Shown in pieces: positions 10,390-46,842 of a stretch of 64,000 nt of DNA. How positions within the stretch are numbered: position 1 is the first letter of the stretch; every line of letters begins with the position of its first letter. The notes beneath the pieces were generated by a model. The model did no database searches. It had not been told where the DNA came from and was given only the letters and a program-made list of their open reading frames with translations. The stretch comes from a virus (taxonomy: Duplodnaviria; Heunggongvirae; Uroviricota; Caudoviricetes), in IMG/VR virus record IMGVR_UViG_3300006143_000002. One strand, written 5' to 3'. A program made the translations under genes and the position numbers.

Positions 10390-11178
10390 TTAAATTTCAA
10401 TACTTTTGCCTTGATGTTGATTTTCCTTTTTACCAATTAACCAATATAAATCTCCTTTTTGTAAAAATGGTACACATTTCCCTTCATAGGTACTATCTAC
10501 ATCAATTCCATTAACTTTAGTATATTCAGAGTAGTCATTATACTTTTGTTTTGCAGTAACCAACTCACAATGTTTTTGCCATATATTCTCACCAATATAC
10601 TTATCTAATATTTTAGGTACACCTGTAAATCCTACCTGAACACCTAATATTGGTTTATTTATTTTGTATTTCATAAATCCTCTTATTAAACCTGCAAGAT
10701 TAATACCAGAACCAACAACAATAACAACTCTATTTATATCATCAATATATGGTAGAATAGATGATACTTCAGCAGCAGTTGTTTCAACTGCAATATTATC
10801 ATCCATTCCGAAAGGTAAGTAAAAAGCATTATTATTTACTGCATATTCTTTTGCCCTTTTTATTAGTACATTTGTATATCCATAAGAATGTTGAATTATC
10901 TCAGCACCCTTTTCAACTGCTCTTCTCATATCTAATTGTAATTCAGATGTAGTTGTATGTCCTACTGCTTTTAAACCTAATTCTTTACAAACACTTGCCA
11001 TTATATTTATTTGGGGAGAAGATTTAGCACCCAAAGTAGTAATAGTTGTATATCCATTTTCTTTTGCTTTTTCACATAATACTTTAGCTGCTCTTACTTT
11101 TGCACCATACATACCACCGAATTCAAATAGGTCATCTCTTTTAAATAATAAATTACCTGCCTTTTGTATTTCTGTCAT
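10390..11178 (-). CDS. PLP-dependent enzyme, ACC deaminase/D-cysteine desulfhydrase family
   Basis: FKRDDLFEFGGMYGAKVR (PLP lysine motif), VVGSGINLAG phosphate loop, DSTYEGK. Confidence 0.8.
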   Translation of the reverse strand: MTEIQKAGNLLFKRDDLFEFGGMYGAKVRAAKVLCEKAKENGYTTITTLGAKSSPQINIMASVCKELGLKAVGHTTTSELQLDMRRAVEKGAEIIQHSYGYTNVLIKRAKEYAVNNNAFYLPFGMDDNIAVETTAAEVSSILPYIDDINRVVIVVGSGINLAGLIRGFMKYKINKPILGVQVGFTGVPKILDKYIGENIWQKHCELVTAKQKYNDYSEYTKVNGIDVDSTYEGKCVPFLQKGDLYWLIGKKENQHQGKSIEI

Positions 11179-11180
11179 TA

Positions 11181-12383
11181 TTATTCCCCTTTCATATATA
11201 GCTCTCTTTCTAATTTTTCTTTAGCTACCTTAAATTTTAGCACATCTAAATCAAATTGTAAATCTAATTTCTCCCAAGGAGCAAACTCACCAGCCCAACT
11301 TGAATTATCCCCAGTGTAACCCTGTCTTGACCAATCATGTCTTAATGGTCTTCTTAAATTAAATCTATCTATAATTCCCTTTACAGATAATGATATATTA
11401 TTTTTAATATAATCTTCTATATCTTCTTCTGTAACATCTGTTCTTTGTTGTCCTTTTAAGTCTACATTTATTGATACAGGTTCTGCTACACCTATAACAT
11501 ATCCTAATTGAACCTCACACTCATCAGATAAACCTGCAGCAACTATATTCTTTGCTAACCATCTTGTAGCATAAGCTCCTGAAGCATCTACTTTTGTTGC
11601 ATCTTTTCCATGTGTATTTCCACCACCAATAGCTGCATAACCACCATAACTATCACAAATAAGTTTTCTACCAACTTCTCCACTATCACCTTCTGGTCCA
11701 CCAATAACAAATTTACCTGTACCATTAATGTGCCAAATTAAATTTTCAGACACTTTTACTTTCGCAGCAACAAATACCCTATTAACTATATCTTTAATTG
11801 TTTCTTGTAAATCCTCGTAATTAGCTGTATCTGTATGTTGACAAGCAACAACTACTGTATGTACCTCTGGTTCATCTTTATCATAATCTATTGTAACTTG
11901 TGCCTTCATATCTCCTTTTAGAAATGGATAATGTCCTTTTGCTTCATATAATCTACTAATTATTCTTTTTGATAAGTATAAGGCTAATGGTAAATACTCA
12001 TCGGATTCTATATTTGCATAACCTATCATTATCCCTTGGTCACCTGCACCAATTTCTTCATCGTCTTTTTCTATTCCTTGTGCTATATCAGGAGATTGTT
12101 TATACACTAAATTCATTATTCTTGGTTCAAATTCATAACCTAAAATTCTATATGCTTCCTTTACAGATTCTTCTATATCTACTTCTATTATTGAAGATAT
12201 TTCTCCTGTTAGGATAACCCATTCATTTTTATTTGTACCATCTATTGCAACATGAGCCTTTGGGTCTAATTCTACATATTTATCTAAAATATAATCTGCA
12301 ACAAAATCCATAGCCCTGTCTGGGTGCTGTGGACTTACATCCTCAGATGTCCATAATCCTCTTTTTGGTTTATACATTATCAC
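11181..12383 (-). CDS. metK: S-adenosylmethionine synthetase (divergent)
   Basis: TSEDVSPQHPDR, QSPDIAQG, GAGDQG, DMKAQVT, GKFVIGGPEGDSGEVGRK, GGGNTHGKDATKVD. Confidence 0.9.
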   Translation of the reverse strand: MIMYKPKRGLWTSEDVSPQHPDRAMDFVADYILDKYVELDPKAHVAIDGTNKNEWVILTGEISSIIEVDIEESVKEAYRILGYEFEPRIMNLVYKQSPDIAQGIEKDDEEIGAGDQGIMIGYANIESDEYLPLALYLSKRIISRLYEAKGHYPFLKGDMKAQVTIDYDKDEPEVHTVVVACQHTDTANYEDLQETIKDIVNRVFVAAKVKVSENLIWHINGTGKFVIGGPEGDSGEVGRKLICDSYGGYAAIGGGNTHGKDATKVDASGAYATRWLAKNIVAAGLSDECEVQLGYVIGVAEPVSINVDLKGQQRTDVTEEDIEDYIKNNISLSVKGIIDRFNLRRPLRHDWSRQGYTGDNSSWAGEFAPWEKLDLQFDLDVLKFKVAKEKLERELYMKGE

Positions 12384-14333: not shown

Positions 14334-15155
14334 CTACCCCTTAAATAATAAACTTTCAAATGCACTTTGTAATAGTAATCTTCTGTTAAAATTTACACCT
14401 TGGCTAAGCATGTGTTTAACTTGGAATAGTACATTAAATTCTTCTGCAAATGATAAATAATTTTTCTTTAACATTTGAGATTCTAATAAATTACATAGTA
14501 TTTCAACAAATACTAATGCTTTATCTATTTTTCCTTTTTCATAGCTTCTATCAAATTTTGATGCAATCTTATTTATATCCGTTTGATTTAGATGAAGTAT
14601 ATCTGTTACTGTATATTCTGCAAATGATAGTATATCGTCAATATCTTCTAAACTTCCATACTTCAATAATGTAGATGGTGTTCTAAAATTGTATTTTAAA
14701 AGTCTTTCAACAATGTTCTTATCTAAACTAGATTTATCTATAAAATCATGTAGTTCCTTATCTGAATATGGTTGCATTTTTAATATTCTTGCCCTACTCT
14801 CTAATGTATCTATTTGTTTTAAACCTGATATTGCTATATAATTACCTTGTAATGGTTCCTCTGTTATCTTTAACAAAGCATTTTTAGCACCTAAACTTGC
14901 TAGATGGAAATCTTTAAAATGATATACTATATTCCCATTAGGTTTTGTAGTTGATACTAATTTCCTAATAGTATCAACTTTATTATCCAACAGCATATAG
15001 CCTAAACCATACTTTTTACATAGATATTTTATAAAATATGTTTTACCCATATCATTATTCCCTTGTACTATAAGGAAACTAGGCATTGTAGTCCAATTTT
15101 TAATTAAATCTAAATTCTTTGTTTGTCCTACTAAGTACATACTTTTATAATCCAC
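14334..15155 (-). CDS. holB: Clamp-loader delta-prime (HolB)-like AAA+ subunit
   Basis: GNNDMGKT Walker A, NALLKITEEP, TLESRARIL. Confidence 0.7.
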   Translation of the reverse strand: MDYKSMYLVGQTKNLDLIKNWTTMPSFLIVQGNNDMGKTYFIKYLCKKYGLGYMLLDNKVDTIRKLVSTTKPNGNIVYHFKDFHLASLGAKNALLKITEEPLQGNYIAISGLKQIDTLESRARILKMQPYSDKELHDFIDKSSLDKNIVERLLKYNFRTPSTLLKYGSLEDIDDILSFAEYTVTDILHLNQTDINKIASKFDRSYEKGKIDKALVFVEILCNLLESQMLKKNYLSFAEEFNVLFQVKHMLSQGVNFNRRLLLQSAFESLLFKG

Positions 15156-16142
15156 CCCTCTATCATAACTTTCATTTCATCTGAAAATAGATTTCCATTT
15201 TTATTATTATAACTTTGTAATATATCTCCTAAAATAACTCTATCAAATCTACCACTATTTAATATTTGTATTGCATTCTCTGATAATGTTGTTATATTCC
15301 CATTTAATACAATAAGATATATTATACAATCTTGTATAAACTCTTTAAATAATTTATTGAATAAAGCCATATCAATACCACTCATATAAATATCATTTAA
15401 AGCTAATATCGATTCTTTTGCTTTTTTATCATAAATCAAACTCATAAAATTCATAAGCATATCTTCTGTAACACCACCAGCAGTAGCAGTAATAACATTT
15501 TCAATATTTATATTTGTATCATAGTCATAACATTTTTCCAATGTTGTAACACTATCACGAACTCCACCTTTTGCTAATCTAGCAATATATGTTAAAGCCT
15601 CTTCTGTATATGTTGTTATTCCTTCATTACTTAATATTCTTTTCATATTAGATACTAAATCTGGTACACTTACTTTCTTAAATGCTAGTTTTTGTACCCT
15701 ACTATGAATAGTTCCTATTACCTTTTGTGGGTCAGTAGTACAAAATATAAAGATAACCCACTCTGGAGGTTCCTCTAATATCTTTAGCAGTGCATTATTA
15801 GCACCTGTAGATAACATGTGACATTCATCCATTATAAATATCTTATATTTACAATCAAAAGGTTTATGTTTACTTTCTTCTATAATATCCCTTACATCCT
15901 CAACACCATTTTTACTAGCACAGTCCAATTCAATAGGTCTTCCTTTACCTTCATTAATTAAATTTGCAACTATTCTTGCTGATGTTGTTTTACCTGTACC
16001 TGCACCACCACAAAATAAATATGCGTGTTTTATATTATTTGTTTGTATTTGATTTTCTAATATCTTTCTAATATGTGGCTGTCCGAATTAATGCATCCCA
16101 CGACTTGGGTCTATATTGTACAGCCCAGCTTTCTTTACTCAT
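15131..16142 (-). CDS. dnaX: Clamp-loader DnaX (gamma/tau) subunit, interrupted by a +1 frameshift near 16085
   Basis: Frame 1 MSKESWAVQYRPKSWDALI; +1 frame GQPHIRKIL...YLFCGGAGTGKTT...ELDCASKNGVEDVR...IMDECHMLSTGANNALLKILEEPP...TIHSRVQ; ORF track only shows 15131..15928. Confidence 0.85.
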
Positions 16143-20561: not shown

Positions 20562-22817
20562 TTATTTAACACCGTCACCTTCCCAATTTAGGAATTTTGC
20601 AACGTCACATTTCATAGGCACTGTAACTTTAGATGCACCTGCCTCTATCATCATTTGGCTCATTAATTCTGCACACCTATCCTTATTTTCCATAGGACAC
20701 TCTCCTATGATTTCGTCATGTACTGGGAATAATTGCCTAAAACCTAATTCCCTCATTTCTTTATTAGTTGCTATCTTTAACATTGCTAACTTACTCATAT
20801 CTGCTGCACTACCTTGCACTATACTATTAACAACTTTTCTATTTGCTTCAGCAATATAACTTCTATTATCTCTAATATCAATTCCAGCTAATTTTGCATT
20901 TTCTATTATTTTCATTCTTTTAGTATAGTTAGCATTTTGTAGTTTTTGAATATAAAATTGTTTAGTTTCTTCTTTAACCTCTACACTTGCAACATCATCG
21001 CTCCAAAACATAGGATTAAAGTCAACCTTTCTATTCTCATTATATGAGAATTCAAACTCATCTCTCTGTATATTTGGTATTATTCTTTTTCTACCCCATA
21101 AGGTTAATGTATATCCTCTTTCTTTTGCTAATTTCTGTTGACTGTTAATATACTCTTGTATTCTAGGATATGCAGTAAAGAAATCATCAATTATTTGTTG
21201 TGCCTCTTGTGTTGATATACCAGCACCTTCAGCCATAGTAGCAGTTGATTCTCCGTATAACAAGCCTAATAATACACCTTTTATTTTTGACCTTCTTTTC
21301 TTGCCTTCTTTATTCAATAATGGTTCGCCATCATCACCTAAAATCTTATTCCCATTTTCATCAGTATAGAATTCTCTACACTCATCATAAGATTTATGAA
21401 ATGCTTTTGATGCCATTTCAGCATATATATCCTTACCATCAGCATAAGCCTGTCTTAAATGCTCATCATTACATAAATGACATAAAATACGTGGTTCTTG
21501 CTGACTAAAGTCTGAACTCATCATTACATAACCATCAGATGCTTTAAATAATTGTCTTATCTTTTTGCCTATTGGGTTTCTTGCAGGAATTTGTTGTAAG
21601 TTTGGTTTACTAGAACTAAACCTACCAGTTTCAGTTCCATCTTGATTTAGATTTGTATGTATTCTTCCTGTTGATGGTTCTATAAATCCAGGTAAACTTA
21701 CTATAAATGCATCTATTAACTTTGTTAGTGTTCTTAACTCTAATAATGCTTTAGTTAATGGTGTATTCAATTCTAACAATATTTCTTTACCTGTACCTTT
21801 CCCTGCTTTTGTTTTATATCCTATAATTTGATAAAACAATGTACTTAATTGTTTTTCACTTTTTAGATTTATTGGGTCTTCTAAAGGGTTTTTAGGATGT
21901 GTTATTTTATATTCATCTATTTGACTTTTATATTTATCTATTTCTGCATAAACAAGTTGCTCTTTTTCTTTTTGTTGTTCCAATAATGTTTGACTTAATT
22001 CATCAGATGCTTTCATATCATATTCAACACCTGTTCTTTGCATTTCTGCAACATAATAAGATAATGGATTTTCTATATTTAAAAATAAATCTTTCGATTC
22101 TGCAAATTCTGTATCTAATATACTTCTTTGCCATTCAAATAATTTATAAGTCATTATAGCATCCTTACCAGCATATATTGTTGCTGTATCTATTGGAATT
22201 AAATCAAATGTTAAACCATTAAATAGTTTATCAAATTTATTTACACCTTCGTCTTCTTCTGCAATATATTTATTATATAGATACTTCAAACCATGCTCTT
22301 CATTACTTCTATATAAATGAGCAAATATAAGAGTATCCCAATATTGCATAGGCATCCAATATCCAAATGCAGTCTTTAATACATTATGGTCGAACTTTCC
22401 ATTATGGTAAACCCATTTTTTGCTGTCTTTGTATTTTTTAAATACTTCTGCAACATCTTTTACCTCAAGTTGTCCCATAGTCCTACCACCATATACATAA
22501 CTTGAGTGATTAAGAGGGATATATACACCATCCCCTCCGTCACTCATTGAGATACCTACAATATAATCGCTAAAATAATTTAATCCCATTGTTTCAGTAT
22601 CTATTGCAATAATATCTCCTGAATTTTCAAAATATGAGATTAGTTCGTCTAATGTTATAATCTTTCTACATAATTTTTTATAATTTCCTAAACTCTTTTC
22701 AACTAAAACATTAGCCTCTACTATTCTTTCTCCTAACCCCATACCTCCACTTTTCTTTGTTTTTCTAACAGAAGAAGATGCTTGTAGATTTGATGTTAAA
22801 TTAAACAAATCTGCCAT
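20562..22817 (-). CDS. polA: Family A DNA polymerase with 3'-5' exonuclease, no 5'-3' exo domain
   Basis: AIDTET (ExoI), HNGKFD (ExoII), YAGKDA (ExoIII), DFSQQEPR (A), RSKIKGVLLGLLYG (B), VHDEI (C). Confidence 0.93.
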   Translation of the reverse strand: MADLFNLTSNLQASSSVRKTKKSGGMGLGERIVEANVLVEKSLGNYKKLCRKIITLDELISYFENSGDIIAIDTETMGLNYFSDYIVGISMSDGGDGVYIPLNHSSYVYGGRTMGQLEVKDVAEVFKKYKDSKKWVYHNGKFDHNVLKTAFGYWMPMQYWDTLIFAHLYRSNEEHGLKYLYNKYIAEEDEGVNKFDKLFNGLTFDLIPIDTATIYAGKDAIMTYKLFEWQRSILDTEFAESKDLFLNIENPLSYYVAEMQRTGVEYDMKASDELSQTLLEQQKEKEQLVYAEIDKYKSQIDEYKITHPKNPLEDPINLKSEKQLSTLFYQIIGYKTKAGKGTGKEILLELNTPLTKALLELRTLTKLIDAFIVSLPGFIEPSTGRIHTNLNQDGTETGRFSSSKPNLQQIPARNPIGKKIRQLFKASDGYVMMSSDFSQQEPRILCHLCNDEHLRQAYADGKDIYAEMASKAFHKSYDECREFYTDENGNKILGDDGEPLLNKEGKKRRSKIKGVLLGLLYGESTATMAEGAGISTQEAQQIIDDFFTAYPRIQEYINSQQKLAKERGYTLTLWGRKRIIPNIQRDEFEFSYNENRKVDFNPMFWSDDVASVEVKEETKQFYIQKLQNANYTKRMKIIENAKLAGIDIRDNRSYIAEANRKVVNSIVQGSAADMSKLAMLKIATNKEMRELGFRQLFPVHDEIIGECPMENKDRCAELMSQMMIEAGASKVTVPMKCDVAKFLNWEGDGVK

Positions 22818-32875: not shown

Positions 32876-33298
32876 CTAAAATAATCTATTTCTTTTTCTA
32901 CCTCTAAATACTTGATTTCCATTCTCCTTTAAGTAATTGTAAAATCTTTCAATAGTATTACTTGCATCTTCCTTACTAATATTTAGTTCTTTTAGTTTAA
33001 CTCTTTTATAGCTATCTTCAAAATCTGCACCATCTATTTTTACATATTGGAATAATAGTAAATGTTTCAATGCAAGTCTTAACTCTTCTTGTGTTGGTAT
33101 CTTTAAAGTTCTACCACCATAATATTTTATAAATTTTTTAAAATTAGAATATTCATCAAACATAAAGCATAATTCTGCTATATCTTTATAACTTTCATCA
33201 TTGGTTAGATATGATAGCAATAAGATATTAAGAACATAATGTTCTTCCTCTGTAAGTACCTTATTTAATTTCTTTTCAAAATCACTTTGTTTCATCAT
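32876..33298 (-). CDS. Mor transcription activator-like protein
   Basis: FIKYYGGRTLKIP matches the Mor-family GG..(I/L)xIP motif; ends RNRLF. Confidence 0.5.
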   Translation of the reverse strand: MMKQSDFEKKLNKVLTEEEHYVLNILLLSYLTNDESYKDIAELCFMFDEYSNFKKFIKYYGGRTLKIPTQEELRLALKHLLLFQYVKIDGADFEDSYKRVKLKELNISKEDASNTIERFYNYLKENGNQVFRGRKRNRLF

Positions 33299-33509: not shown

Positions 33510-35150
33510 CTATATTATTGGTACATTTGGTTGAATAAGTTGTAATAAATTTTGGTCTTTTTCATTTTCCTCTATAATTGCACCACCCATAGTAAGTATA
33601 GTTCCTGCTACACTAGCAGCATTTAAAACACAATATCTATCAACTTTTACTGCATTTATAACACCAGTTTCAATTAAATCTTCATATTCATTTGTTAAAG
33701 CATTAAATCCTTTTTGTATTTCAATACATTTCATTACCACATCTTTACCATCAAATCCAGCATTGTTAGCAATTTGTTGTGTAACTTTGGTTAAAGATTC
33801 TTGCATTATAGTATAAGCTGTTGCTTTTTCTAATGACATGTTTGATAAATCTTCTGATATTTCATTAGCAACTTTTAATAAACTATATCCACCACCTGCA
33901 ACAATTCCTTCTTCCATAGCTGCTTTGACTGAATTTAAAGCATCTTCAACTCTTAATTTAGTATCTTTTATTTCCACGTCTGAATTTCCACCTATTTCTA
34001 TAACAGATATTCCACCAGCTAAATTGGCAATCCTTTTATCATATTGAGTTGTATCCTTACCTACACCTAAAGTCTTTTTCTGTTCTAATAGTTCCTCAAC
34101 TCTTGCAGTTCTATCTTCTAATAAATTAACTCCAAAAGAATTTACATCTTTAAATTTTAATATTGTTTCATCTAATTCTATTTTTGCACTACTTAATTCA
34201 CCAAACCAAGAAGAATTAAATGATTTAATAGGTCTTCCTGCCTCTCTACTAATTGTTGTGGAACCTGTTGCAATACATAAATCATCTATCATAGAATTTT
34301 TTAAGTCCATATTAAATCCAGGAAGTCTAATAATGTTTACATTTAATGCTCCATTAGCTTTATTCATTACAATAAAATTTAAAGGTTCAACATCTATATC
34401 TTCACATATAATTAGCAATCTTCTGCCTTCTTTATTACAAGTATCTAATATAGGTAATAAATCTGGTACATTATCTAGTCTATCCTTTGATATTAAAACA
34501 CTAACATCATCTATCTCTGATACAAGTGTTCTTCTTTCTAATAAATATGGAGATACAGAGCCATTTGGTAATCTCATTCCCATTACAGAAGTTAAACCTG
34601 TAATTCCAGTTTTACTATCTTCTACAATTACTGTTCCATGTTCACCAGCTTGTTTAAATGCATCTGCAATAAGTTCGCCAGTTTTCTCATTACCACTTGA
34701 AATAGTTGCAACTCTCTTAATTGATTCATCATCTTTAACTTCAATAGCACTTTCTAATAATTTATTACTAATATCTTCTGCTATATTATTTAATTCTTTT
34801 TGTATTTGTACTGGATTTAAGTTTAAGTTACTTAATGTTTCAAAACCCTTATTTATCATTTCAGATGCTAATACAGTTGTAGTTGTTGTTCCATCTCCTG
34901 CTACCATATTTGTTTTATTTGCAGCAGATATTATTAGTGCTGCTCCTGCATCCTCTGTATTATCTTTTAATTTTATTGATTTTGCTATCGTAACACCGTC
35001 ATTTGTTATTACTGGAATGCTTCCATTCTCTCTAATCAAAACATTTCTACCTTTTGGTCCTATTGTTGTTTTTACAATATTTGAAACAGAATTTATACCT
35101 TTTATAATTGATTTTTGAGCATCATCACCAAACTTAATATCTTTACTCAT
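33510..35150 (-). CDS. groEL: Chaperonin GroEL
   Basis: TIGPKGRNV, ITNDGVTIAK, AGDGTTT, EEGIVAGGG; no GGM tail. Confidence 0.95.
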   Translation of the reverse strand: MSKDIKFGDDAQKSIIKGINSVSNIVKTTIGPKGRNVLIRENGSIPVITNDGVTIAKSIKLKDNTEDAGAALIISAANKTNMVAGDGTTTTTVLASEMINKGFETLSNLNLNPVQIQKELNNIAEDISNKLLESAIEVKDDESIKRVATISSGNEKTGELIADAFKQAGEHGTVIVEDSKTGITGLTSVMGMRLPNGSVSPYLLERRTLVSEIDDVSVLISKDRLDNVPDLLPILDTCNKEGRRLLIICEDIDVEPLNFIVMNKANGALNVNIIRLPGFNMDLKNSMIDDLCIATGSTTISREAGRPIKSFNSSWFGELSSAKIELDETILKFKDVNSFGVNLLEDRTARVEELLEQKKTLGVGKDTTQYDKRIANLAGGISVIEIGGNSDVEIKDTKLRVEDALNSVKAAMEEGIVAGGGYSLLKVANEISEDLSNMSLEKATAYTIMQESLTKVTQQIANNAGFDGKDVVMKCIEIQKGFNALTNEYEDLIETGVINAVKVDRYCVLNAASVAGTILTMGGAIIEENEKDQNLLQLIQPNVPII

Positions 35151-36893: not shown

Positions 36894-37065
36894 TACTTAC
36901 CTCCTTATGAACACATGCTTTACTATTATAACTTCTAAACCTGTTCCATGGTCTGATTTGTGTTTCTAAACTAGTACAATTTCCATCAATTCCATTCGAT
37001 GTTTCAAAATAGAAACAATTACCACATTTTCCTTTAAAGTCTGTCGTTCTAACTTCATATATCAT
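36874..37065 (-). CDS. Small Cys-rich hypothetical protein
   Basis: MIYEVRT...CGNC...C...C. Confidence 0.5.
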   Translation of the reverse strand: MIYEVRTTDFKGKCGNCFYFETSNGIDGNCTSLETQIRPWNRFRSYNSKACVHKEVSSEKTRP

Positions 37066-37548: not shown

Positions 37549-39546
37549 CTATTTATTTAATAATCTTGATAGTCCATTCTCATCTTTTATAACTGTAATT
37601 GTTCCATCATTAGGTATTGTAAGTTCTTTATGTCCAATAAATATTATACTAGAAACACTTTGTAATTCTTCTATTATCAAATCTATAATATTCATTTCAG
37701 CGTCACTATCACATTGTCCTAAAACCTCATCCAAAACTATTAAATTACAGTCAACATTTCCAAGATTTGATGCTAAATATTTCTGTGCTAATAACAAACA
37801 AATATTTACTCTTGTTTTCTCACCACCACTTAAACTCTCATAAGAAGCATCACCTAATCTTATATCTAACTTAGAATCGTCACCATCAATAATTATAACA
37901 TCTTTATGGTTACTAAATAATCTATTACTTAAATATTCTAACTTATCATTTAATATTTTTATACTATTTTGTAATAAATAAGTTCTAAATGGTTTTGTTA
38001 TTAGTTGTTGCGAATATTTACATACATCTACTAAATCATTTTGCTCATTCCATTTTGATTCAATTTCCCTTATTTGAATGTTGCTACTATTTATATTACT
38101 ATTTGCTTCATCTATCATTTCTTCATATTCTGCTGTACTTTGAATTTCAACTTTTAATAATTCCTCTTTTTTACCTTGTAGCATATCCTTTTTATTTTGT
38201 AATTCTCTTATTTGATTTTGCTTAGATGATATAAGCTCTCTCTGTTCTCTTATCTTATTTTGATTATCTTGTATATATTTTTCAATATCTTGTATTTGAT
38301 TATCTATATTCTGTATCCTATTTTGCTCTAAATCATATTGTTCTCTTATCTGTTTTCCTTTTTCTGTTTCTGTATTTATTTCAATACTCTTATTATTTAT
38401 TAAATTTTTATTATCTTGTATCTTATTTTGTATATCTAATATTTCTGTTTCTTTCTCTTTTATTAAATTTAAAATATGTTCCTCATTAGCATTATCATAT
38501 TTTCTACCACAAGTAGGGCATGTGTCTGACTTCCTAATACTATCTATCTCACTATTTAATCTATTAATAGAACTTTCAAAATTAGATATTTCAAATTCCC
38601 ACTTATCTACCTCAGAACTTAATTTATTAACTAAATCTCTTTGTGTATTTAGTATATTGTTTATTTCTTCTCTCTTATTCTCTATTTCTACTCTATTAGA
38701 TTTAAGATTATTCATATCTAATTGTTTATTACTAATTACAGAATCAAATTCAGGTATAACTATATTTTCAATATCTACAATATCATTATTCAATATATTA
38801 ATATCTTTATGTATTTGATTTATTTCAATATCTATTTCTTCTACATTTCCCAAAGACTTCTTTTTTTCATTCTCTATCTTAATATCATTTATTTTAGAAT
38901 TTAAGGTATTTATTTGACTTTGTAATGATTGTATATTACCTTCTAATTTTGTTTTGTCTAAAGTCAATCTAGTACACTCAGCTTCATACTCTATTTGTTT
39001 GTTCTTTATATATAGTTTAAAATCTTCAATTAGTTTTTCAGTTCCTGTTAATATTTCTAATCTTTCTTTTCTAGCAGTTGGTGATAAAGAACTTAAATTT
39101 GTACTTACCCCCTGTGCTAAAAATATACTATCAAGGAATAAGTCTTTATTTATTCCTAAATATTTTTGTATTAACTTATCTGTATCTGTTTTATTTCTCC
39201 CAGATACATCTATACCATTTTCTAATAATTGTATATTAGATTTTCCATTTTCTTTATATCTAATAATTGTGTAATTAATTCCATTTATACTTAAATCTAA
39301 ACTAACTCTATATCCTTGATTTAATATCCTATTCTCTGGGTCTTTTATCCCTAAACTTGTTTCTCCATATAAAGAAAATATAATAGATTCAAAAATACTT
39401 GATTTTCCACTACCATTGCTTTTAACATTAGCCTCATAGTTATTTATTCCTTTAACTACAACTATTCCTTTACTGTCAAGTTCAAGTTCTATATTCTCTA
39501 CTGATTGAAAATTCTTTATATGAATTTTTTTAAATACAATATTCAT
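37549..39546 (-). CDS. sbcC: SbcC/Rad50/gp46-like SMC ATPase
   Basis: NGSGKSS, coiled coil with CPTC zinc hook, LSGGEK, VLDEV. Confidence 0.9.
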   Translation of the reverse strand: MNIVFKKIHIKNFQSVENIELELDSKGIVVVKGINNYEANVKSNGSGKSSIFESIIFSLYGETSLGIKDPENRILNQGYRVSLDLSINGINYTIIRYKENGKSNIQLLENGIDVSGRNKTDTDKLIQKYLGINKDLFLDSIFLAQGVSTNLSSLSPTARKERLEILTGTEKLIEDFKLYIKNKQIEYEAECTRLTLDKTKLEGNIQSLQSQINTLNSKINDIKIENEKKKSLGNVEEIDIEINQIHKDINILNNDIVDIENIVIPEFDSVISNKQLDMNNLKSNRVEIENKREEINNILNTQRDLVNKLSSEVDKWEFEISNFESSINRLNSEIDSIRKSDTCPTCGRKYDNANEEHILNLIKEKETEILDIQNKIQDNKNLINNKSIEINTETEKGKQIREQYDLEQNRIQNIDNQIQDIEKYIQDNQNKIREQRELISSKQNQIRELQNKKDMLQGKKEELLKVEIQSTAEYEEMIDEANSNINSSNIQIREIESKWNEQNDLVDVCKYSQQLITKPFRTYLLQNSIKILNDKLEYLSNRLFSNHKDVIIIDGDDSKLDIRLGDASYESLSGGEKTRVNICLLLAQKYLASNLGNVDCNLIVLDEVLGQCDSDAEMNIIDLIIEELQSVSSIIFIGHKELTIPNDGTITVIKDENGLSRLLNK

Positions 39547-39565
39547 TTGAAAACCTACCTCATTA

Positions 39566-41464
39566 CTAAAATAATTTATTCTGTTGTGTTTTGACTTCAT
39601 CTATCTTATAGTCACCTTTAACAAAAATAGCAACTTCTTGTAGCATATTTACTCTTTTTGCCATTGCATTTTTCATATTTAGTACATTACTAGATAAACA
39701 CTTAAAACCAACATTTTCCATCATTTTTATCCATTTTTCTTTATATTTATCAATTCTTTCAGTTTGTAAAATTACTATTCCTCCGTCTTTCATGTACTTA
39801 TAAACATTTGTGAATATAGGTGTTGAAAAATACTTATGGAAATCATCATAATCTTTCATACCTTGTATCTGTTCTTCAAAACCATCATACATTTCAAAGT
39901 CAAAGTAAGGTGGAGATGTGTAAACAAAATCAACCTTATTCTCTAATTCTGGTTCATAAATTTTAGAATCTTTTATTCTAACTTCAAAATGTTGTCCAAA
40001 TTTTTTATATTTATTTAATATAGGCATAAAAGTACTGTTAAGATAATTCCATTCTTTTGAATTTGTATCATTTCCTATATATGTTTTAACACCATATTTA
40101 GCAAACATTAAAACCCTATCTCCATGCCCAGCAAAAGGGTCAAATACAAATGCACTTTTAGGGCAAAATTCTTTTAATAATTCAGGATTACCTTTAAAAC
40201 TTCCATATATGGCAAATCTATCTATTGCAATTTGTTTAGGGTATGTATATCCTTTTGGTACAGACATATCCATTTGTATCTTACCACTTGGAAAATCATA
40301 ATGTACTGTTCCATCTTCATTATATTTAAAATATTTAATACCACCAATACAATCTTCATCATCTACTCTTATTCCTCTAGGACGATATGTTGCTGAAGCC
40401 TTTGTTGAAAATGCAGCAGCAGTTGTCATATCATTATCAGATATACATGATGTACTTGTACTTGATATCCTATCTGCTCTTATTCCTCTTGGTTGATATG
40501 TATGACTTGTAGTATTTACCATAACAGATGCATCTTGAACACCTGCATCAATACTTCTAGTTGCAATACTTGTTCCAGATACCCTTGAAACCCTACCATT
40601 TTTAGATATTTTAACATCTTGGCAATTTTTACACAAACCATTTATATACCTATTATTAACACCACAACAATCGCATTTATTACCATCTATGTCTATATAA
40701 ATATCTTCATTCCCAGAACCAACTATCGAACCATTCTTATTTAATAATTCTAATTCATAATTTTTAAATGGGTCACATTTTAATTTTAAATCTAAATATA
40801 TTTCATATAACCATTTTCTGTCTTCTAAAATTGGTAAATTTGGGTCTAGGTATTCATCAAACTGTCTATATGTATTTTTTAGTGCATTTATCTCCTCAGA
40901 TACCATACTTTTTTCACTTTTAATTTTATGTTTTGATAATTCAAAAAACTTTTCAAATTTAGTTCCTTTTATTACTGTATCAAAATCTTTGATTTTCATA
41001 AATCCATCTCTATCAATAAATCCATTTTGTCCTAAATATATTAATGAATAAAATGCTCTATTATGTGTACCATCTCTAAATGTTTGATTTCCATTTTCGT
41101 CATGCATAAACTGTTGTGTGTCCATTCTGTATTTCATATTAAATGCAGATAAATATCCATTATTTGTATCAAAATCTTGTTGCTTACCTTTAAAATATTT
41201 ATAAATACTATCTTCCAACTTATCTATTGTAATACTATCTTGTTGTTTATTCCAATAATATTCGTAAAGGTCATTTGCAATATCTATTTGCCATAATTCT
41301 GGGTTAGAATATACTCGAAATGAACTGTCATACCCAATTAGGATATGACAATCATTCCACCAATACATATTAATAATATCTTTAGCAATTTTCTGTTTTA
41401 GCTTATTTTTATCCCCTGTAATTTTAAATTCAGGATTCTGAAAAATATTCTGTACTAAATTCAT
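39566..41464 (-). CDS. Modular DNA methyltransferase 1: unknown N-domain, Zn ribbon, ~2 repeats, amino-MTase domain
   Basis: CDCC...CKNC; FDPFAGHGDR (motif I); YTSPPYF (motif IV); ends QQNKLF. Confidence 0.8.
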   Translation of the reverse strand: MNLVQNIFQNPEFKITGDKNKLKQKIAKDIINMYWWNDCHILIGYDSSFRVYSNPELWQIDIANDLYEYYWNKQQDSITIDKLEDSIYKYFKGKQQDFDTNNGYLSAFNMKYRMDTQQFMHDENGNQTFRDGTHNRAFYSLIYLGQNGFIDRDGFMKIKDFDTVIKGTKFEKFFELSKHKIKSEKSMVSEEINALKNTYRQFDEYLDPNLPILEDRKWLYEIYLDLKLKCDPFKNYELELLNKNGSIVGSGNEDIYIDIDGNKCDCCGVNNRYINGLCKNCQDVKISKNGRVSRVSGTSIATRSIDAGVQDASVMVNTTSHTYQPRGIRADRISSTSTSCISDNDMTTAAAFSTKASATYRPRGIRVDDEDCIGGIKYFKYNEDGTVHYDFPSGKIQMDMSVPKGYTYPKQIAIDRFAIYGSFKGNPELLKEFCPKSAFVFDPFAGHGDRVLMFAKYGVKTYIGNDTNSKEWNYLNSTFMPILNKYKKFGQHFEVRIKDSKIYEPELENKVDFVYTSPPYFDFEMYDGFEEQIQGMKDYDDFHKYFSTPIFTNVYKYMKDGGIVILQTERIDKYKEKWIKMMENVGFKCLSSNVLNMKNAMAKRVNMLQEVAIFVKGDYKIDEVKTQQNKLF

Positions 41465-41478
41465 TATTAAACCTCTTT

Positions 41479-44400
41479 CTAAAATAATGTGTTGCTTGAT
41501 TGTTTTGCTTCTGCTCTTCCATAGTCACCTTTAACAAAAATTCCTATTTCTTGAATAGTTTTATTAATACCATGTTTCTGTTCATTACTTAAATCATTCT
41601 CTGTAATATTTTTAAATCCAACACTTACCATCATATCTATCCATTTTTGTTTTAGTTTTTTATCTTTCTCTGTTTGTAATATTACAACACCACCATCTTT
41701 CATATATCTATATACATTTTTAAAGATAGGTATTGAAAATTCTCTATGGAAATCATCATAAGTTTTCATACCAGCGATTTGCTCTGTAAACCCATCATAC
41801 ATTTCAAAATCAAAATATGGAGGAGATGTGTAAACAAAATCAACCTTATTCTCTAATTCTGGTTCATAAATCATTGAATTTTTGATTCTAACCTCACATC
41901 TTTGGTTAAATCTCTTATATTTATTTATTAATTCAATTAGATTATTATTTAGGAAATTCCATTCACGTTCATTTGTATCATTTCCTATATATGTTTTACA
42001 GCCATATTCCATAAAGAATAATGCTCTGTCTCCGTGTCCTGCAAATGGGTCAAATACAAAAGCATTTGAAGGGCAAAATTGTTTTAATAATTCTAAATTC
42101 CCATTAAAACTTCCAAACATAAAAAATCTATTTGTAGATATATTATCTGGATATTTATAACCATCTGGAATTGTCATATCAAATATTTTACCTTGAGATG
42201 AATAGTATCTAACAGTATTTTCAGATGTATAAACAAAATCTTTTATATTTCCAATAAATTTAACATCATTACTATTTAATGCAGATGGTGAGGTTGTTAT
42301 GCTACTTCTACTTGCTTTTCCTGCCTCATCAACTGTATCTTTATTTCTTGCAAATGATTGTTCAGATGTAGTTGTACCTACATTTACACTATTTGCAGAA
42401 ACAGATGTTGTCATACTACTTCTACTTGTCATACCTGCTTCTGCTGTAGTTTCTTCTACATTTACATTAGAAACTCTTGATGTAGTTGTTCCAACATTTA
42501 TTACATTTTCAGAACTTAATTTTGTTTGAAATGCACTGGTTCTAGCCTCCATACCTATTTGAGATACTGTATTATCTCCTGTTGTATGTGAATTTCCTGA
42601 AGTTGAATTTCCCACTCTTGTTTTTGAGTTTGCAAACTCATTATTACCTACATTTACAGCTCTAACAGCGGTTTGGAATCCAGCAGTTCTTGATTCTAAA
42701 CCAGCTCTTTGAACACTCTCTTCTGATGTTACATTTGATGCCCCTGATGAATGTGTAAATGCTGCAATTCTACTATCATGACTTGCAAATTGCAATGTTT
42801 CATCATCAATTACACTTGAATTTGCACTTGATTTTTGCATACCTATATTTAAGCCTCTTGATTGTGAACTACCACTTGAAACACTAACATTTGCAACAGA
42901 ACCTACACTATCATCTGATATTGATGTGCTATGTGCAGATGTTGATGTGCCAACTTGAACTGTATTTGAATTACTTGCAGATTTAGAAGCATTATGTCCT
43001 GCTTCTGTTAAAATATCTGCTCTCATTGTTTCACTATTTGATGTTGTTTGTGTACCTACTTGCACACTTTGATTTTCTAATTGCATTCCTGAAGCTCTAC
43101 TAGCTATACTTGCTGCAGAAGCACCACTTACAATAGATATTGTATCATCAAGTACTGTATGAGATTTACCAGTTATATTTACACTTACATTTTGACCTGG
43201 CATTCTACTTACTTTACTTGCAACTGCTGTATGACTTGCATCTGACATTCTTTCTTCTGCAACTGCTGTTGATATTCCTGTTGTATTGTTACTTACTGTT
43301 ACTTCTCCTACATTATACCCAACAGACTTACTGGCATTACTTTTTACTGCTGTATTTCCAGCACTTGATAACTCATCATCACCTATCACACCACTATTTC
43401 CAGAAGGTGCAGTACCAACATTTAATCCTGCTGCTCTACTAGCTCTACTTGCAACAGAGTTCCAAGACACATTATCTATACTCTCATCGCTTACAGAATG
43501 TCCTTGTCTTGATGTACCATCACTAACTCTAAAACTTCCTGAACTTGCACTTGAAGCTGCCCCTGCTAATTTAACTGCATCTTGTTGAATTGAATTACTT
43601 TTTTGACTTATATTCCCATATAATTTATTTCCTATCATTCTATCTTTAAAATTCATTTCACAACAGTCTTTACATAAGCCGTTTCTAAAATGAGGTTTAC
43701 CACAATTTACACATGCAATATCATTATAATATATAAATTCATTTCCACCCATAACTATAAAACCATTTTTTCTTAATAACTCTGTTTCATAATTTTTATA
43801 TGGGTCACATTTTACTTCTACATTAACACAAAAATCATATAACCATTTTCTATCTTCTAAAATTGGTAGATTTGGGTCTAGGTATTCTCTAAAATCCTTA
43901 TATGATTTAGCCAAATCTCTTATTTCTTTTTTAACACCATTCTCTCCATCATCAAAATGGTCTATACAAGTTTCAAAATATTTCAAGTATTTAGGATTTG
44001 ATTTTACAACTTCATTCCAGTCTTTCAATCTTACTTTATTATCAAAATCAATAAATCCATTCTGTGCAATATATATCAATGAGTAAAAAGGTCTTGTAGG
44101 TGTACCATCTCTAAATGTTTGATTTCCATTTTCATCTACCATACATTGTCCCTTATCTGCTCTAAATGGAATTGTAAATTTAGGTAATACTGTTGTTTGT
44201 ACTCCTATATATTTAGAATTTTTCATGTGATTATAAATTTCATTCTCTAAATCTTGATAATTAGTATATCTATCTACTGTATAGTTCCAGTAAAACTCAA
44301 ATAAACTATTTGCTGCATCTAGTTGCCATCTTTGTGGATTTGTGTATTCTCTCTGACCATCTTTATATCCAACTAATAAATCGCAACTGTTAAACCAATT

Positions 44401-44499
44401 CATATTGATTATATCTTTTAATATTCTCTTTTTTAATTTATGTTGGTCTCCCTCAATTTTAAATTCAGGGTTTTGAAAAATATTTTGTATTAAATTCAT
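41479..44499 (-). CDS. Modular DNA methyltransferase 2: same layout with ~11-12 repeats
   Basis: Paralog of 39566..41464; CVNC...CKDC; FDPFAGHGDR; YTSPPYF; ends SSNTLF. Confidence 0.8.
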   Translation of the reverse strand: MNLIQNIFQNPEFKIEGDQHKLKKRILKDIINMNWFNSCDLLVGYKDGQREYTNPQRWQLDAANSLFEFYWNYTVDRYTNYQDLENEIYNHMKNSKYIGVQTTVLPKFTIPFRADKGQCMVDENGNQTFRDGTPTRPFYSLIYIAQNGFIDFDNKVRLKDWNEVVKSNPKYLKYFETCIDHFDDGENGVKKEIRDLAKSYKDFREYLDPNLPILEDRKWLYDFCVNVEVKCDPYKNYETELLRKNGFIVMGGNEFIYYNDIACVNCGKPHFRNGLCKDCCEMNFKDRMIGNKLYGNISQKSNSIQQDAVKLAGAASSASSGSFRVSDGTSRQGHSVSDESIDNVSWNSVASRASRAAGLNVGTAPSGNSGVIGDDELSSAGNTAVKSNASKSVGYNVGEVTVSNNTTGISTAVAEERMSDASHTAVASKVSRMPGQNVSVNITGKSHTVLDDTISIVSGASAASIASRASGMQLENQSVQVGTQTTSNSETMRADILTEAGHNASKSASNSNTVQVGTSTSAHSTSISDDSVGSVANVSVSSGSSQSRGLNIGMQKSSANSSVIDDETLQFASHDSRIAAFTHSSGASNVTSEESVQRAGLESRTAGFQTAVRAVNVGNNEFANSKTRVGNSTSGNSHTTGDNTVSQIGMEARTSAFQTKLSSENVINVGTTTSRVSNVNVEETTAEAGMTSRSSMTTSVSANSVNVGTTTSEQSFARNKDTVDEAGKASRSSITTSPSALNSNDVKFIGNIKDFVYTSENTVRYYSSQGKIFDMTIPDGYKYPDNISTNRFFMFGSFNGNLELLKQFCPSNAFVFDPFAGHGDRALFFMEYGCKTYIGNDTNEREWNFLNNNLIELINKYKRFNQRCEVRIKNSMIYEPELENKVDFVYTSPPYFDFEMYDGFTEQIAGMKTYDDFHREFSIPIFKNVYRYMKDGGVVILQTEKDKKLKQKWIDMMVSVGFKNITENDLSNEQKHGINKTIQEIGIFVKGDYGRAEAKQSSNTLF
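42270..43600 (-). repeat. Degenerate ~35-40-aa protein repeat array inside MTase 2
   Basis: Recurring S..(V/I).(D/E)(D/E)(T/S)....A/G...S..S....(G)xNVG units. Confidence 0.7.
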
Positions 44500-44538: not shown

Positions 44539-44772
44539 CTACTTATTAAATATGATTTTATATCCTGTCCCTTGACACTCTTTACAATTTAATCTTTCTT
44601 GAATATTGTCTAACTTTTTATTTTTAGAACATTTACAAACCTTTATCTCTTTAATATTACATTGTTTTAAACAAGCTGCTATAATTCCTTTATAATTTTG
44701 ATATTCTAAACATATATCATTTAATATAGATATATCCCTCATTACATCTTCTTTACATCTCATATCAAACAT
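44539..44772 (-). CDS. Small Zn-finger protein
   Basis: CKC...CKECQGTG. Confidence 0.55.
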   Translation of the reverse strand: MFDMRCKEDVMRDISILNDICLEYQNYKGIIAACLKQCNIKEIKVCKCSKNKKLDNIQERLNCKECQGTGYKIIFNK

Positions 44773-44785
44773 ACTTATACACTCC

Positions 44786-45661
44786 TTAAAATAATTTATT
44801 AGAAATCTCTTTTTCTTTTTCCATATTCAGCACCTTTAATGCACTTTCATACAAATTGACACATTCTCTTGTAGTATCATTTTTAAGTTGACTTAGTTTT
44901 CTACAGGATACAACGTCACCTTCTATATCTGTAATTGTTTTTCTTCTTCCTTTACACAATCTTATAGTAACGTCACCATTTGCATTTGGGTATCCTAGGA
45001 ATGCACCAGTATCTCTAATATTAGAAAATATCTTTTTAACAAATCCATCGCTAACTCTATAAACAACATAACGCTCTCCGTTATTATTATATTTAGGTAA
45101 GGTATTATTTCCAATAGTAACACCTTTATAGCTCACATCATTTCTAAACACCCATCTTATATTATCGCTACTTACATCTGTTCCAGTATTATTTTTATAG
45201 CACACTCTAAGCTTACTTTGGTCTATTGGTATTTTAGATTCAAATAGTCCATCTTTAAATAAAATGTATTTTGGTTTAGGAACAAATAATTCTGCAACTG
45301 TTCTTCCTACCCATAATTTATAAGATTTACCATCACTAATAATATTTGCATATAAATAATTGTTTACAGTTCCATTACCCTGTTCCTTTTCAGATATAAA
45401 TTTATCCATAAATACAGATACCTTTGTATATTCCCATTTACTAAAAGACTTATTGTAAATCTTTCTAAATATGTTTCCTTTATTACTAATCATATATTCT
45501 CCATTGAATTTTGGTATATCTGCGAATAACTCTCCCTTTAGTCCAACCTCCTCGACCTTATATATTTTAGTATTAAGATTAGAATATACAATATATTCTA
45601 AATAATCTAACAACTTAAATCCATATACACCTTTATTAGACTTTTTTATATGTTTACCCAT
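44786..45661 (-). CDS. NUMOD4-HNH-NUMOD1 homing-endonuclease-like protein, catalytic residues degenerate
   Basis: DIPKFNGEYMISNKGNI (NUMOD4); VGRTVAELFVP and VCYKNNTGTDVSSDNIRW in place of VHRLVA..F and VNHKDG.K.NN...NL.W; VKKIFSNIRDTGAFLG (NUMOD1). Confidence 0.7.
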   Translation of the reverse strand: MGKHIKKSNKGVYGFKLLDYLEYIVYSNLNTKIYKVEEVGLKGELFADIPKFNGEYMISNKGNIFRKIYNKSFSKWEYTKVSVFMDKFISEKEQGNGTVNNYLYANIISDGKSYKLWVGRTVAELFVPKPKYILFKDGLFESKIPIDQSKLRVCYKNNTGTDVSSDNIRWVFRNDVSYKGVTIGNNTLPKYNNNGERYVVYRVSDGFVKKIFSNIRDTGAFLGYPNANGDVTIRLCKGRRKTITDIEGDVVSCRKLSQLKNDTTRECVNLYESALKVLNMEKEKEISNKLF

Positions 45662-45672
45662 TCAAAACACCC

Positions 45673-46842
45673 CTAAAATAAATTACTTGATTTATTTGAA
45701 ATCTTATCCATATTTTCTTGACTTTTATTTTCAATTCCATATTTAGCTTCCCAAGTATTTATAACTTCTCCAGTATCATAATTAGTTATATCATTTACAT
45801 TAACTTCTTCTTGCCCTTTAACTTCTCCAATAACTACATTATATAAATTCATAGGATATCTTAACTCAACACCTGAATTTAAAAAATCTTTAAAAGATTG
45901 TTTTATATCTAAATTACTTTCCAATGTAATATTACTATTTTGATTTTGTTCTTCTTGCTTAATTGATTTTGTAACTATTTTATAATTAAGTATTTTATTA
46001 CAATTTTGTAATAATGCTTCTATATCATTTTTCATCTCAAAATCACATTCAACCTGTAATATAAAATTATAGGTGCTATTCTCTGCTTCTTTAATATAAT
46101 CATTAGCTTCTTCAATAGTATCTATTTTTATTTTTCTAAATAAAGGGCATATTTTATTTTCAAACTCTTTCAATTCTTGTGTAATTGTATCAAATATATA
46201 ACAAGTAGGAACTGAATCAGTGCTATCTGCAAAAGAATGAGTTGTTATACTTCCTACATTTACTATATTTGCAAATTTACTACAAGCATGAACATGCCCA
46301 TTAAATACTTTCTTAAATTTAGATAAACTGTCTTTCTCTATTCCAAAATCAAGTATTCTATTTGCAGAAATTTTACTACCATATATATCGTGGTGCATAA
46401 AAGCATAATCACTACCATTATAATTTGATAAGTCTAAATCTTTATAGTCACAATATGGTAAGAATAATAAATTGTCAATAACTGTTGGTGTATCAATAAC
46501 TTGTATTCCTTGTATATTGTCTAATAATTTTAATACATTATAATCTGTATTAAGCATCTCATGATTTCCACATAATATTATATGTTGTTTATTTAGATAT
46601 TGAAATACTTTAAAAAATTCACTTGCAGTATCTATATCATAGCTTGTTATTGTATTTTGGTCGAATGTATCTCCTAAATTTATAATCATATCAACATTAT
46701 TTTGTTGAATAATATCTGTCATCCATTGTGCAGTTTTTACTATCATATCTTGTCTATATGTATATTTTCTATAACTACTTGTAATAGGTAATATACTACT
46801 TGTTCTACTTATATGTACATCTGAATATATAAATAATCTCAT
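45673..46842 (-). CDS. sbcD: SbcD/Mre11/gp47-like metallophosphoesterase nuclease
   Basis: SDVH, LGDTFD, GNHE, HHD, GHVH; ends SSNLF. Confidence 0.88.
   Translation of the reverse strand: MRLFIYSDVHISRTSSILPITSSYRKYTYRQDMIVKTAQWMTDIIQQNNVDMIINLGDTFDQNTITSYDIDTASEFFKVFQYLNKQHIILCGNHEMLNTDYNVLKLLDNIQGIQVIDTPTVIDNLLFLPYCDYKDLDLSNYNGSDYAFMHHDIYGSKISANRILDFGIEKDSLSKFKKVFNGHVHACSKFANIVNVGSITTHSFADSTDSVPTCYIFDTITQELKEFENKICPLFRKIKIDTIEEANDYIKEAENSTYNFILQVECDFEMKNDIEALLQNCNKILNYKIVTKSIKQEEQNQNSNITLESNLDIKQSFKDFLNSGVELRYPMNLYNVVIGEVKGQEEVNVNDITNYDTGEVINTWEAKYGIENKSQENMDKISNKSSNLF

Follow-up and report, generated by a model that had tools for sequence, protein, structure and literature searches.

The chief passive protection of phages from restriction is methylation by their own enzymes, and few studies ask how such enzymes keep up when phage DNA replicates fast. 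An SPPY form of the catalytic motif IV favours N4-cytosine over N6-adenine as the methylated base, and in type I systems the 4-residue spacer repeats of HsdS distinguish EcoR124I from EcoR124II. DNA ligase and FEN are textbook clients of sliding clamps. In a review of clamp partners, eukaryotic DNMT1 is the only methyltransferase named, and the table of bacterial partners in the same review lists none (PMC9690074). Circularly permuted forms of the N6_N4_Mtase family (Pfam ID PF01555) have been noted in jumbo phages (PMC7824862), and in-frame tandem repeats that create disordered regions have been described in Borg elements (PMC9879509). The subject of this report is a pair of adjacent genes, P0001 and P0002, in a stretch of 64,000 nucleotides from the virus record IMGVR_UViG_3300006143_000002 (referred to below as the window). 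Their products are predicted to be paralogous phage DNA amino-methyltransferases that modify either N4-cytosine or N6-adenine, with DNA as the presumed substrate. In both, an orphan N-terminal domain and the catalytic domain are joined by a repeat region, and the C-terminal tail probably binds a sliding clamp encoded by the same phage.

Domain architecture of the paralogs

Each protein consists of an N-terminal domain (N-domain) of about 255 residues, a zinc knuckle with a CxxC...CxxC pattern, a region of repeated units, a compact catalytic domain, and a short tail (Table 1). The four cysteines of the knuckle are invariant in 13 close homologs. BLASTP aligns the paralogs with 53% identity over the C-terminal 342 residues and 42% over the N-terminal 405 residues; in trimmed alignments, identity is 51% for residues 1 to 290 and 62% in the catalytic domain. 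From the zinc knuckle to motif I the distance is 159 residues in P0001 versus 536 in P0002. The longest identical tracts in the two genes measure 50 and 34 nucleotides, against a background identity of 74% and 68%, respectively, and coincide with the most conserved motifs; they may reflect either gene conversion between the paralogs or constraint.

The sole Pfam match in either protein is N6_N4_Mtase, with 30.9 and 34.3 bits against a gathering cut-off of 26.7; it covers the last ~120 residues and only the motif IV half of the profile. The motifs FDPFAGHG (motif I) and TSPPYF (motif IV) are invariant in the close clade and nearly invariant throughout the family. The beta-class order, in which motif IV is followed by the recognition domain and then by motif I, is not the one seen in P0001, where motif I comes first and no domain lies between the two motifs, indicating a circular permutation. 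With only ~67 residues separating the motifs and only ~110 following motif IV, the catalytic part lacks a recognition domain both internally and at its C terminus. A profile search of the PDB sequences retrieves only DNA N6/N4 methylases (TTHA0409, M.MboIIA, DpnA, an N4C methylase, and CcrM). The catalytic fold is of the class I Rossmann type, and the nearest folds in AFDB, BFVD, and the ESM Atlas are viral methylases, mostly auto-named N4-cytosine, or members of PF01555.

A third methylase of this phage (339 residues; G000:C3:211036-212055, positions 1000-2019 of locus L004) belongs to the same permuted subfamily (hhalign, 99.3%). It ends in KSNKLF and has an unrelated 144-residue N terminus.

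The N-domain has no accepted Pfam family among 38 N-domains compared with that database, which yielded only scattered weak matches (NUC153 in 6 of them and PAZ_2 in 3). A profile search of the PDB sequences gave no match to it, and its look-alikes by language-model features all scored at most 0.80, which is chance level. An exhaustive profile search over 1.84 billion representative proteins returned only 12 clusters. Word-indexed searches brought up 19 close homologs, all on phage contigs of ~210 to 225 kb, and 51 members of a distant clade. The family thus comprises about 70 proteins and is rare and undescribed; every full-length member has the same order of N-domain, Ser/Ala-rich array, and permuted methylase.

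The AlphaFold model of P0001, built from a 66-sequence alignment, has a predicted local distance difference test score (pLDDT) of 79.3 and a predicted template modelling score (pTM) of 0.79. The N-domain reaches a pLDDT of about 90 and the catalytic domain is also high, with values below 50 for residues 282 to 340. Because 90 of the 632 residues are disordered, a pTM of 0.79 means that both domains are confidently placed against each other, and many structural alignments to the model span residues ~78 to 619. In every fold search made with the full-length model, the match list was filled by the Rossmann catalytic domain, so that the absence of an N-domain match there is not evidence of a new fold. 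Among orthologs, the ratio of nonsynonymous to synonymous substitution rates (dN/dS) is 0.085 in the N-domain versus 0.09 in the catalytic domain. The N-domain is thus the more diverged of the two between the paralogs under equal constraint among orthologs, which fits a recognition lobe with paralog-specific specificity. On the strength of the model and of this divergence, the N-domain is probably the recognition lobe of the enzyme.

These results bear out the observations, and part of the interpretation, in a reading of the locus made from the DNA alone (the sequence-only reading). Both open reading frames (ORFs) are present exactly as it gave them, and its assignment of a common N-domain, CxxC...CxxC pattern, repeat region, and compact methyltransferase holds for both. 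The length difference that it had placed in the repeats does sit there, and its estimate of about 2 versus 11 to 12 units is matched by the counts given below. The amino-methyltransferase type that it proposed has a Pfam match above the cut-off and both motifs behind it; motif order and spacing bear out its view that the catalytic part leaves little room for a recognition domain. The N-domain that it could not assign has no family in Pfam or relative among PDB sequences, and the targeting role that it suggested for this domain is likely, given the modelled placement on the catalytic domain and the higher divergence between paralogs. Two features escaped that reading, the conserved N-x-L-F tail and the proposed origin of the array, throughout the family, in a minisatellite.

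C-terminal tails and the sliding clamp

The tails of the two paralogs are instances of a C-terminal pattern that recurs in this phage. Proteins ending in N-x-L-F or N-L-F are encoded by 8 of the 229 ORFs on the phage contig versus 2 of the 2,011 on other contigs (Fisher p = 4e-7). The carriers are NAD ligase, 5'-3' exonuclease/FEN, SbcD, an HNH protein, both paralogs, the third methylase, and a 140-residue protein. All 19 close homologs of the paralogs keep the tail. In a related 222-kb phage it is present in SbcD, in a different HNH protein, in both methylases, and in the 140-residue protein, despite a synonymous divergence (dS) of 0.8 to 1.1 across the globular domains of the methylases. The last four residues of the P0001 model have a pLDDT below 50, which indicates that the tail is exposed.

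The list of carriers suggests a clamp-binding peptide, and it is fairly probable that the tail docks on the divergent β-type sliding clamp of the phage, P0078, for which two clamp-loader subunit genes are also present (Table 1). P0078 starts with a 75-residue low-complexity extension rich in Gln, Glu, and Pro; it has no Pfam match at E <= 0.01, and all three DNA_pol3_beta domains are recognized only in a distant homolog. In a complex prediction that paired residues 76 to 449 of the clamp with the catalytic domain, the score was 0.42, versus 0.00 for the best of three controls; the runs agreed in at least 80% of contacts, and the pLDDT of the partner was at least 64. This outcome was graded as weak support. 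The mark used for the grading is reached by 58 of 80 solved complexes and by 2 of 110 mismatched pairs, with a score of 0.60 or less in 7 of the 80 and in both mismatches, and these reference counts hold only roughly because the alignments used were made in the analysis.

The tails read [SQ]-N-x-L-F, in which the L-F of the consensus Q-L-[SD]-L-F is kept and its Gln is mostly absent. Together with the weak grade of the complex test and the occurrence of the tail in the 140-residue and HNH proteins, this would also suit a peptide that binds another hub, such as the single-strand-binding protein, or that acts as a C-terminal degradation or packaging signal. Such a role is unlikely, as the carriers include the established clamp clients ligase and FEN (PMC9690074), the phage encodes its own clamp and loader, and the controls of the complex test scored 0.00; clamp binding accordingly remains the favoured function of the tail.

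The family A polymerase of the phage has M-A-D-L-F as its first residues, perhaps a form of the L-F hook placed at the N terminus. A Q-x-L-L-[VI]-F motif near the C terminus of the distant relatives was considered as a clamp tail and rejected, as it is the last β-strand of the fold.

The repeat array at the domain junction

The array is a family-wide, fast-evolving insert at the junction of the two domains, and in this phage it is long, built of units, and partly under selection. In P0002 (residues 301 to 745) it contains 19% Ser, 10% Thr, 9% Ala, and 9% Asn. Its internal repetition exceeds that of composition-preserving shuffles, with a best diagonal of 62 versus 39 +/- 4 and a top-20 mean of 48 versus 30 +/- 1.5. 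A hidden Markov model (HMM) of the unit counts 11 to 12 copies of ~36 to 40 residues in P0002 and 8 to 12 in the long orthologs. In consensus, the unit opens acidic, includes a hydrophobic position and a Ser/Ala-rich core that contains S-R, and ends in G-x-N-V-G, or S-R-x-x-G-x-N-V-G when read from that S-R. The linker of P0001 has two divergent units ending in Y-x-P-R-G-I-R; they were recognized by eye and by comparison with orthologs, and the HMM of the long units misses both.

Linker length ranges from 423 to 578 residues in the long orthologs and from 159 to 210 in the short ones, in steps of roughly one unit. Between two alleles of the long paralog, whose flanking domains show 98.9% and 98.1% identity, the array differs by one 37-residue and one 38-residue unit at separate places, and by one rewritten unit. 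Variation of the repeat count among homologs, which the sequence-only reading had proposed to look for, is therefore seen both among the long orthologs and, as whole units, between alleles.

The window contains no tandem repeat at the DNA level, and the Ser codons of the P0002 array (AGT, TCA, and TCT) are used much as in the rest of the gene, which rules out selection on the array at the level of DNA. These two observations indicate that the units are old and are kept at the protein level. When the array is compared with that of the 222-kb relative, dN/dS is 0.36 in its N-terminal half, where only 181 of 260 codons could be aligned, and 0.13 in its C-terminal half, which is 85% identical and in dN/dS comes close to the enzymatic domains. 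The C-terminal half is thus under purifying selection, and the array is not a neutral spacer. A search for look-alikes of the array by language-model features gave no usable match.

In the distant relatives, the same junction contains an (x-Ala-Ser)n array of ~8 to 50 triplets that usually ends in S-D-A-G. A single array is nearly uniform in its Ala and Ser codons; in one example, GCC AGC accounts for 43 of the 45 Ala codons and 49 of the 53 Ser codons, whereas the rest of the gene uses all codons. The pair is GCA AGC or GCA AGT in other phages, and in one array a block of GCG AGT precedes one of GCT TCG. Four alleles with 0 to 1 differences in 660 nucleotides of the methylase part have 31 to 53 nine-nucleotide units, with common blocks in shuffled order. 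The array of the distant relatives is an active in-frame 9-nucleotide minisatellite. Within its unit, the first two bases have an entropy of 1.0 to 1.9 bits versus ~0 to 0.5 bits for the other seven, synonymous positions included. This near-fixed 7-mer beside two hypervariable bases was seen in loci L007-L017 and L034-L036.

Two candidate explanations at the DNA level were set aside. A diversity-generating retroelement as the source of the x codons was rejected because such elements vary positions that are adenines in a template repeat, whereas the A of AGC/AGT is invariant across up to 51 units and it is the two preceding bases that vary, a judgement made from this pattern alone, with no search for a template repeat or a reverse transcriptase. 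A Chi-like role of the fixed hexamer, or its use as a site of the methylase, was dropped because the phages differ in it (GCCAGC, GCAAGC, and GCAAGT) and one array switches to GCTTCG.

Two distant relatives, P0025 (870 residues) and P0050 (927 residues) of locus L012, have an insertion of ~300 to 390 residues that splits motif I (F-D-P-F / insert / C-G-H-G). The insert of P0025 has a weak LAGLIDADG_3 match, consistent with an intein.

As to what the array does, its main job might be multivalent docking, with each conserved unit serving as a binding peptide for a replisome or recombination protein, for DNA, or for the body of the enzyme itself, so as to concentrate or regulate the enzyme at replication sites. 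The low dN/dS of the C-terminal half, the near identity of unit sequences across orthologs, and the common unit consensus point in this direction, as does the helix in the last unit of the short paralog (residues 346 to 359), which is modelled next to the body with a pLDDT of 60 to 80. Docking has no known partner, however, and the search by language-model features gave no look-alike of the array; the N-terminal half is far freer, with unit turnover, and the distant relatives manage with a plain (x-Ala-Ser)n coil of any length. As the main job of the array, docking has only a small chance of being correct.

A broader proposal, for which the chances are smaller still, sees the array as a working part, open to evolution, of phage methylases that ride the replisome and would form a new class. 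The number and sequence of units might then tune which DNA is modified or when, or might allow escape from a host sensor, and the 9-nucleotide minisatellite of the distant relatives might be a dedicated diversifying mechanism.

The sequence-only reading had put forward a molecular ruler. In such a ruler or tether, the N-domain and zinc knuckle would anchor the enzyme at one DNA site, the length of the array would set the distance at which methylation occurs, and the number of units would tune its spacing or pattern. Array length does differ in whole units between paralogs and between orthologs, the C-terminal units are conserved, and within the catalytic domain there is nothing to recognize a target. 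The AlphaFold model, in contrast, sets the N-domain directly on the catalytic domain (pTM of 0.79), and both ends of the short linker lie on one compact body. A random coil would measure distance imprecisely, and 31 to 53 units among distant alleles with nearly identical methylase parts would scramble any pattern coded by length. The same reading had named predicted disorder of the repeats as a finding that would count against its idea; in the short linker, the one that was modelled, residues 282 to 340 are predicted to be disordered. A ruler is accordingly improbable.

Genomic setting, proposed mechanism, and known systems

The window comes from contig C3, which has 220,052 bp, a G+C content of 27.4%, and eight tRNA genes; a 61-bp terminal overlap indicates that it is circular or complete. 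It encodes a portal protein, tail fibre proteins, family A polymerase, DnaB, UvsX, GroEL, and NAD ligase, and its source is a jumbo phage. A megablast search of the 10-kb region against phage records gave no match.

Table 1. Positions of the paralogs, their parts, and other genes of the window
Feature	Positions	Strand	Remarks
MetK (S-adenosylmethionine synthetase)	11181..12383	-	all three SAM-synthetase domains; a PLP (pyridoxal phosphate)-dependent enzyme follows (block 10390-12383)
Two clamp-loader subunit genes	14334..15928	-	DNA_pol3_delta2, DnaX lid
Beta-type sliding clamp P0078, 449 aa	19189..20538	-	proposed docking partner of the tails
Family A polymerase	20562..22817	-	
140-aa protein	32876..33298	-	function unassigned; ends RNRLF; tail kept in related phage
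GroEL-type chaperonin	33510..35150	-	phrog_5725
SbcC-like ATPase	37549..39600	-	PHROGs
Short paralog P0001, 632 aa	39566..41464	-	N-domain, zinc knuckle, two-unit linker, permuted amino-methyltransferase, NKLF tail
P0001 C-terminal tail QQNKLF	39569..39586	-	
P0001 catalytic domain, aa 373-626	39587..40348	-	motif I 441-448, then motif IV 516-521
P0001 linker, aa 282-372	40349..40621	-	two divergent units; pLDDT <50 at 282-340; one helix 346-359
P0001 CxxC...CxxC knuckle, aa 264-281	40622..40675	-	four Cys invariant in close clade
P0001 N-domain, aa 1-258	40691..41464	-	orphan family; pLDDT about 90
Long paralog P0002, 1006 aa	41479..44499	-	architecture of P0001 with an array of 11-12 units
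P0002 C-terminal tail SSNTLF	41482..41499	-	
P0002 catalytic domain, aa 746-1000	41500..42264	-	
P0002 repeat array, aa 301-745	42265..43599	-	units of ~36-40 aa; N-terminal half variable, C-terminal half conserved
P0002 CxxC...CxxC knuckle, aa 263-279	43663..43713	-	
P0002 N-domain, aa 1-256	43732..44499	-	
77-aa Cys-rich ORF	44539..44772	-	between HNH gene and long methylase
HNH/NUMOD4 endonuclease-like gene	44786..45661	-	ends SNKLF
SbcD-like nuclease	45673..46842	-	ends SSNLF
5'-3' exonuclease/FEN	54275..55354	-	ends INKLF; classical clamp client

The methylase genes lie between genes for an SbcD-like nuclease and an SbcC-like ATPase, as the sequence-only reading had stated, in an interval that also includes an HNH/NUMOD4 gene and a 77-residue Cys-rich ORF. 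The SbcD-like, SbcC-like, and HNH assignments come from PHROGs. The Cys-rich ORF has no family match and has an 82-residue counterpart in the related phage. The idea that the pair is an inserted module fares poorly. In the diverged 222-kb relative (labelled uncultured Clostridium sp.), the order is helicase, SbcD, HNH, small ORF, long methylase (935 residues), short methylase (682 residues), and SbcC, which shows that the cassette is ancestral to the phage group and not a recent insertion. In Twort-like staphylococcal phages a related methylase adjoins SbcD, among the SbcCD genes, and in the distant clade the methylase is found a few kb from an SbcC-like gene, beside genes for gp32 and RecA.

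The gene block reads as one operon. No terminator-like site is found between positions 37000 and 47500, which fits this reading and shows little, and a promoter scan gave 78 sites versus 80.8 expected by chance. The listed start of SbcC overlaps the methylase stop by 35 nucleotides; in the related phage SbcC begins 22 nucleotides past the stop, so that the true start in the window is probably later. The window also encodes a GroEL-type chaperonin, and in the related phage (locus L022) the genes past the end of SbcC include Cpn60, Cpn10, and a SpoVG-like gene. The phage of the window encodes a MetK in which the three SAM-synthetase domains are all present, followed by a gene for a PLP-dependent enzyme; supply of the methyl donor by this MetK fits a heavy demand for it.

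Methylation of RNA or protein in place of DNA, by analogy with the m2G/m6A (N2-methylguanine/N6-methyladenine) RNA methyltransferases or the PrmC glutamine methyltransferase, which share the (D/N/S)PPY motif, is highly improbable, as every sequence-level match is to a DNA methylase, the clusters closest in AFDB and among viral entries are of the DNA N4/N6 kind, and the genes sit in a replication and recombination operon and have their tail in common with ligase and FEN.

The account that best joins these observations, a two-lobed, clamp-tethered methylase pair with an array at the junction, has about an even chance of being right as a whole. The orphan N-domain would pack on the circularly permuted PF01555 catalytic domain and most likely supply DNA recognition, and P0001 and P0002 would modify two different motifs. 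The repeat region would be an inserted loop where the two lobes meet. Throughout the family, this loop would begin as a Ser/Ala minisatellite, in frame, whose length rises and falls through unequal recombination; in this phage it would have aged into units of 36 to 40 residues that are no longer repeats at the DNA level and are still gained and lost. Selection would preserve the C-terminal units, whose role is probably that of flexible peptides for docking or as a hinge, not that of a ruler. The N-x-L-F tail would most likely hook the enzymes to the phage's own β-type clamp, and enzymes held there might methylate new phage DNA at the fork, leading to escape from host restriction. Of this account, the architecture, the rarity of the family, the turnover of units, the pattern of selection, and the enrichment and conservation of the tail are observed, and the DNA substrate, recognition by the N-domain, binding to the clamp, and the role of the array are inferences.

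Several points weigh against this account, beginning with the tail, which lacks the Gln of the canonical clamp motif and has a complex test graded as weak. A loop that is merely flexible does not account for the strong purifying selection on the C-terminal units. Disorder was modelled for the linker of the short paralog only, and the V/T/S/N-rich units of the long array, with their G-x-N-V-G ends, could fold. The packing of the N-domain on the catalytic domain is read from pTM alone. An AlphaFold model of the N-domain by itself (13 close sequences) reached a pLDDT of only 41 and was left unused, so that any likeness of its fold to recognition domains is conjectural.

Of the new leads on mechanism, the clamp tail lends itself best to testing. 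If the methylase is indeed tied to the clamp, it would be a prokaryotic-virus counterpart of the coupling between DNMT1 and PCNA, and a tail common to ligase, FEN, SbcD, and HNH proteins would define a clamp "tool belt" of the phage. The orphan N-domain is a candidate for a new DNA-recognition module of compact methylases and could serve in engineering. The two stages seen at one domain junction, an active minisatellite in some phages and old, partly selected units in others, offer a clean system for the birth and function of low-complexity inserts.

Several described systems are similar in part. The β-class PF01555 methylases of the M.MboIIA and M.RsrI type share with the paralogs the Pfam match, the (S/D)PPY motif IV, the FxGxG motif I, the class I Rossmann fold, and a place among the sequence relatives in the PDB. 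Unlike these enzymes, the phage proteins have motif I first and no internal recognition domain and carry in addition the orphan N-domain, the repeat array, and the N-x-L-F tail. Closer in overall shape are the phage fusions of ParB_N with N6_N4_Mtase and the viral PF01555 methylases of ~350 residues, which also have an N-terminal accessory lobe on a PF01555 catalytic lobe. In the ESM Atlas, the template modelling (TM) score by hit is 0.71 over 309 residues for a cluster of 354-residue viral methylases and 0.53 for the ParB_N fusions. However, the N-domain of the paralogs has no sequence likeness to ParB_N or to the N terminus of the third methylase. To our knowledge, no repeat array is present at the domain junction of either group.

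The HsdS subunits resemble the paralogs in that the number of short in-frame repeats changes a modification enzyme. In HsdS the repeats lengthen a rigid coiled coil, which moves the two halves of the recognition site apart by a single base of spacer, whereas those of the phage are predicted to be disordered and differ in length by tens of residues. The short paralog shows no rigid helical spacer between recognition modules, in which residues 282 to 340 have a pLDDT below 50 and the lobes are modelled in contact. Borg repeats and those of phase-variable mod genes are also fast-evolving DNA tandem repeats inside ORFs, with Ser/Ala-type low-complexity segments like those of the distant relatives. 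Phasevarions have repeat units that are not multiples of three; the window has no DNA repeat, and the units of the relatives, 9 nucleotides long and in frame, are multiples of three that allow no on/off frameshift. Unlike either kind of repeat, the array of the methylases is confined to one fixed domain junction of one family, and in the window its repetition has been lost at the DNA level. Finally, DNMT1 with its PCNA-binding motif is a DNA methyltransferase that, as is proposed here, binds the clamp through a short peptide and so works on freshly replicated DNA (PMC9690074). It is a eukaryotic enzyme that forms C5-methylcytosine and binds PCNA through an internal motif near its N terminus, whereas the phage enzymes would bind a β-type clamp through a tail at the C terminus.

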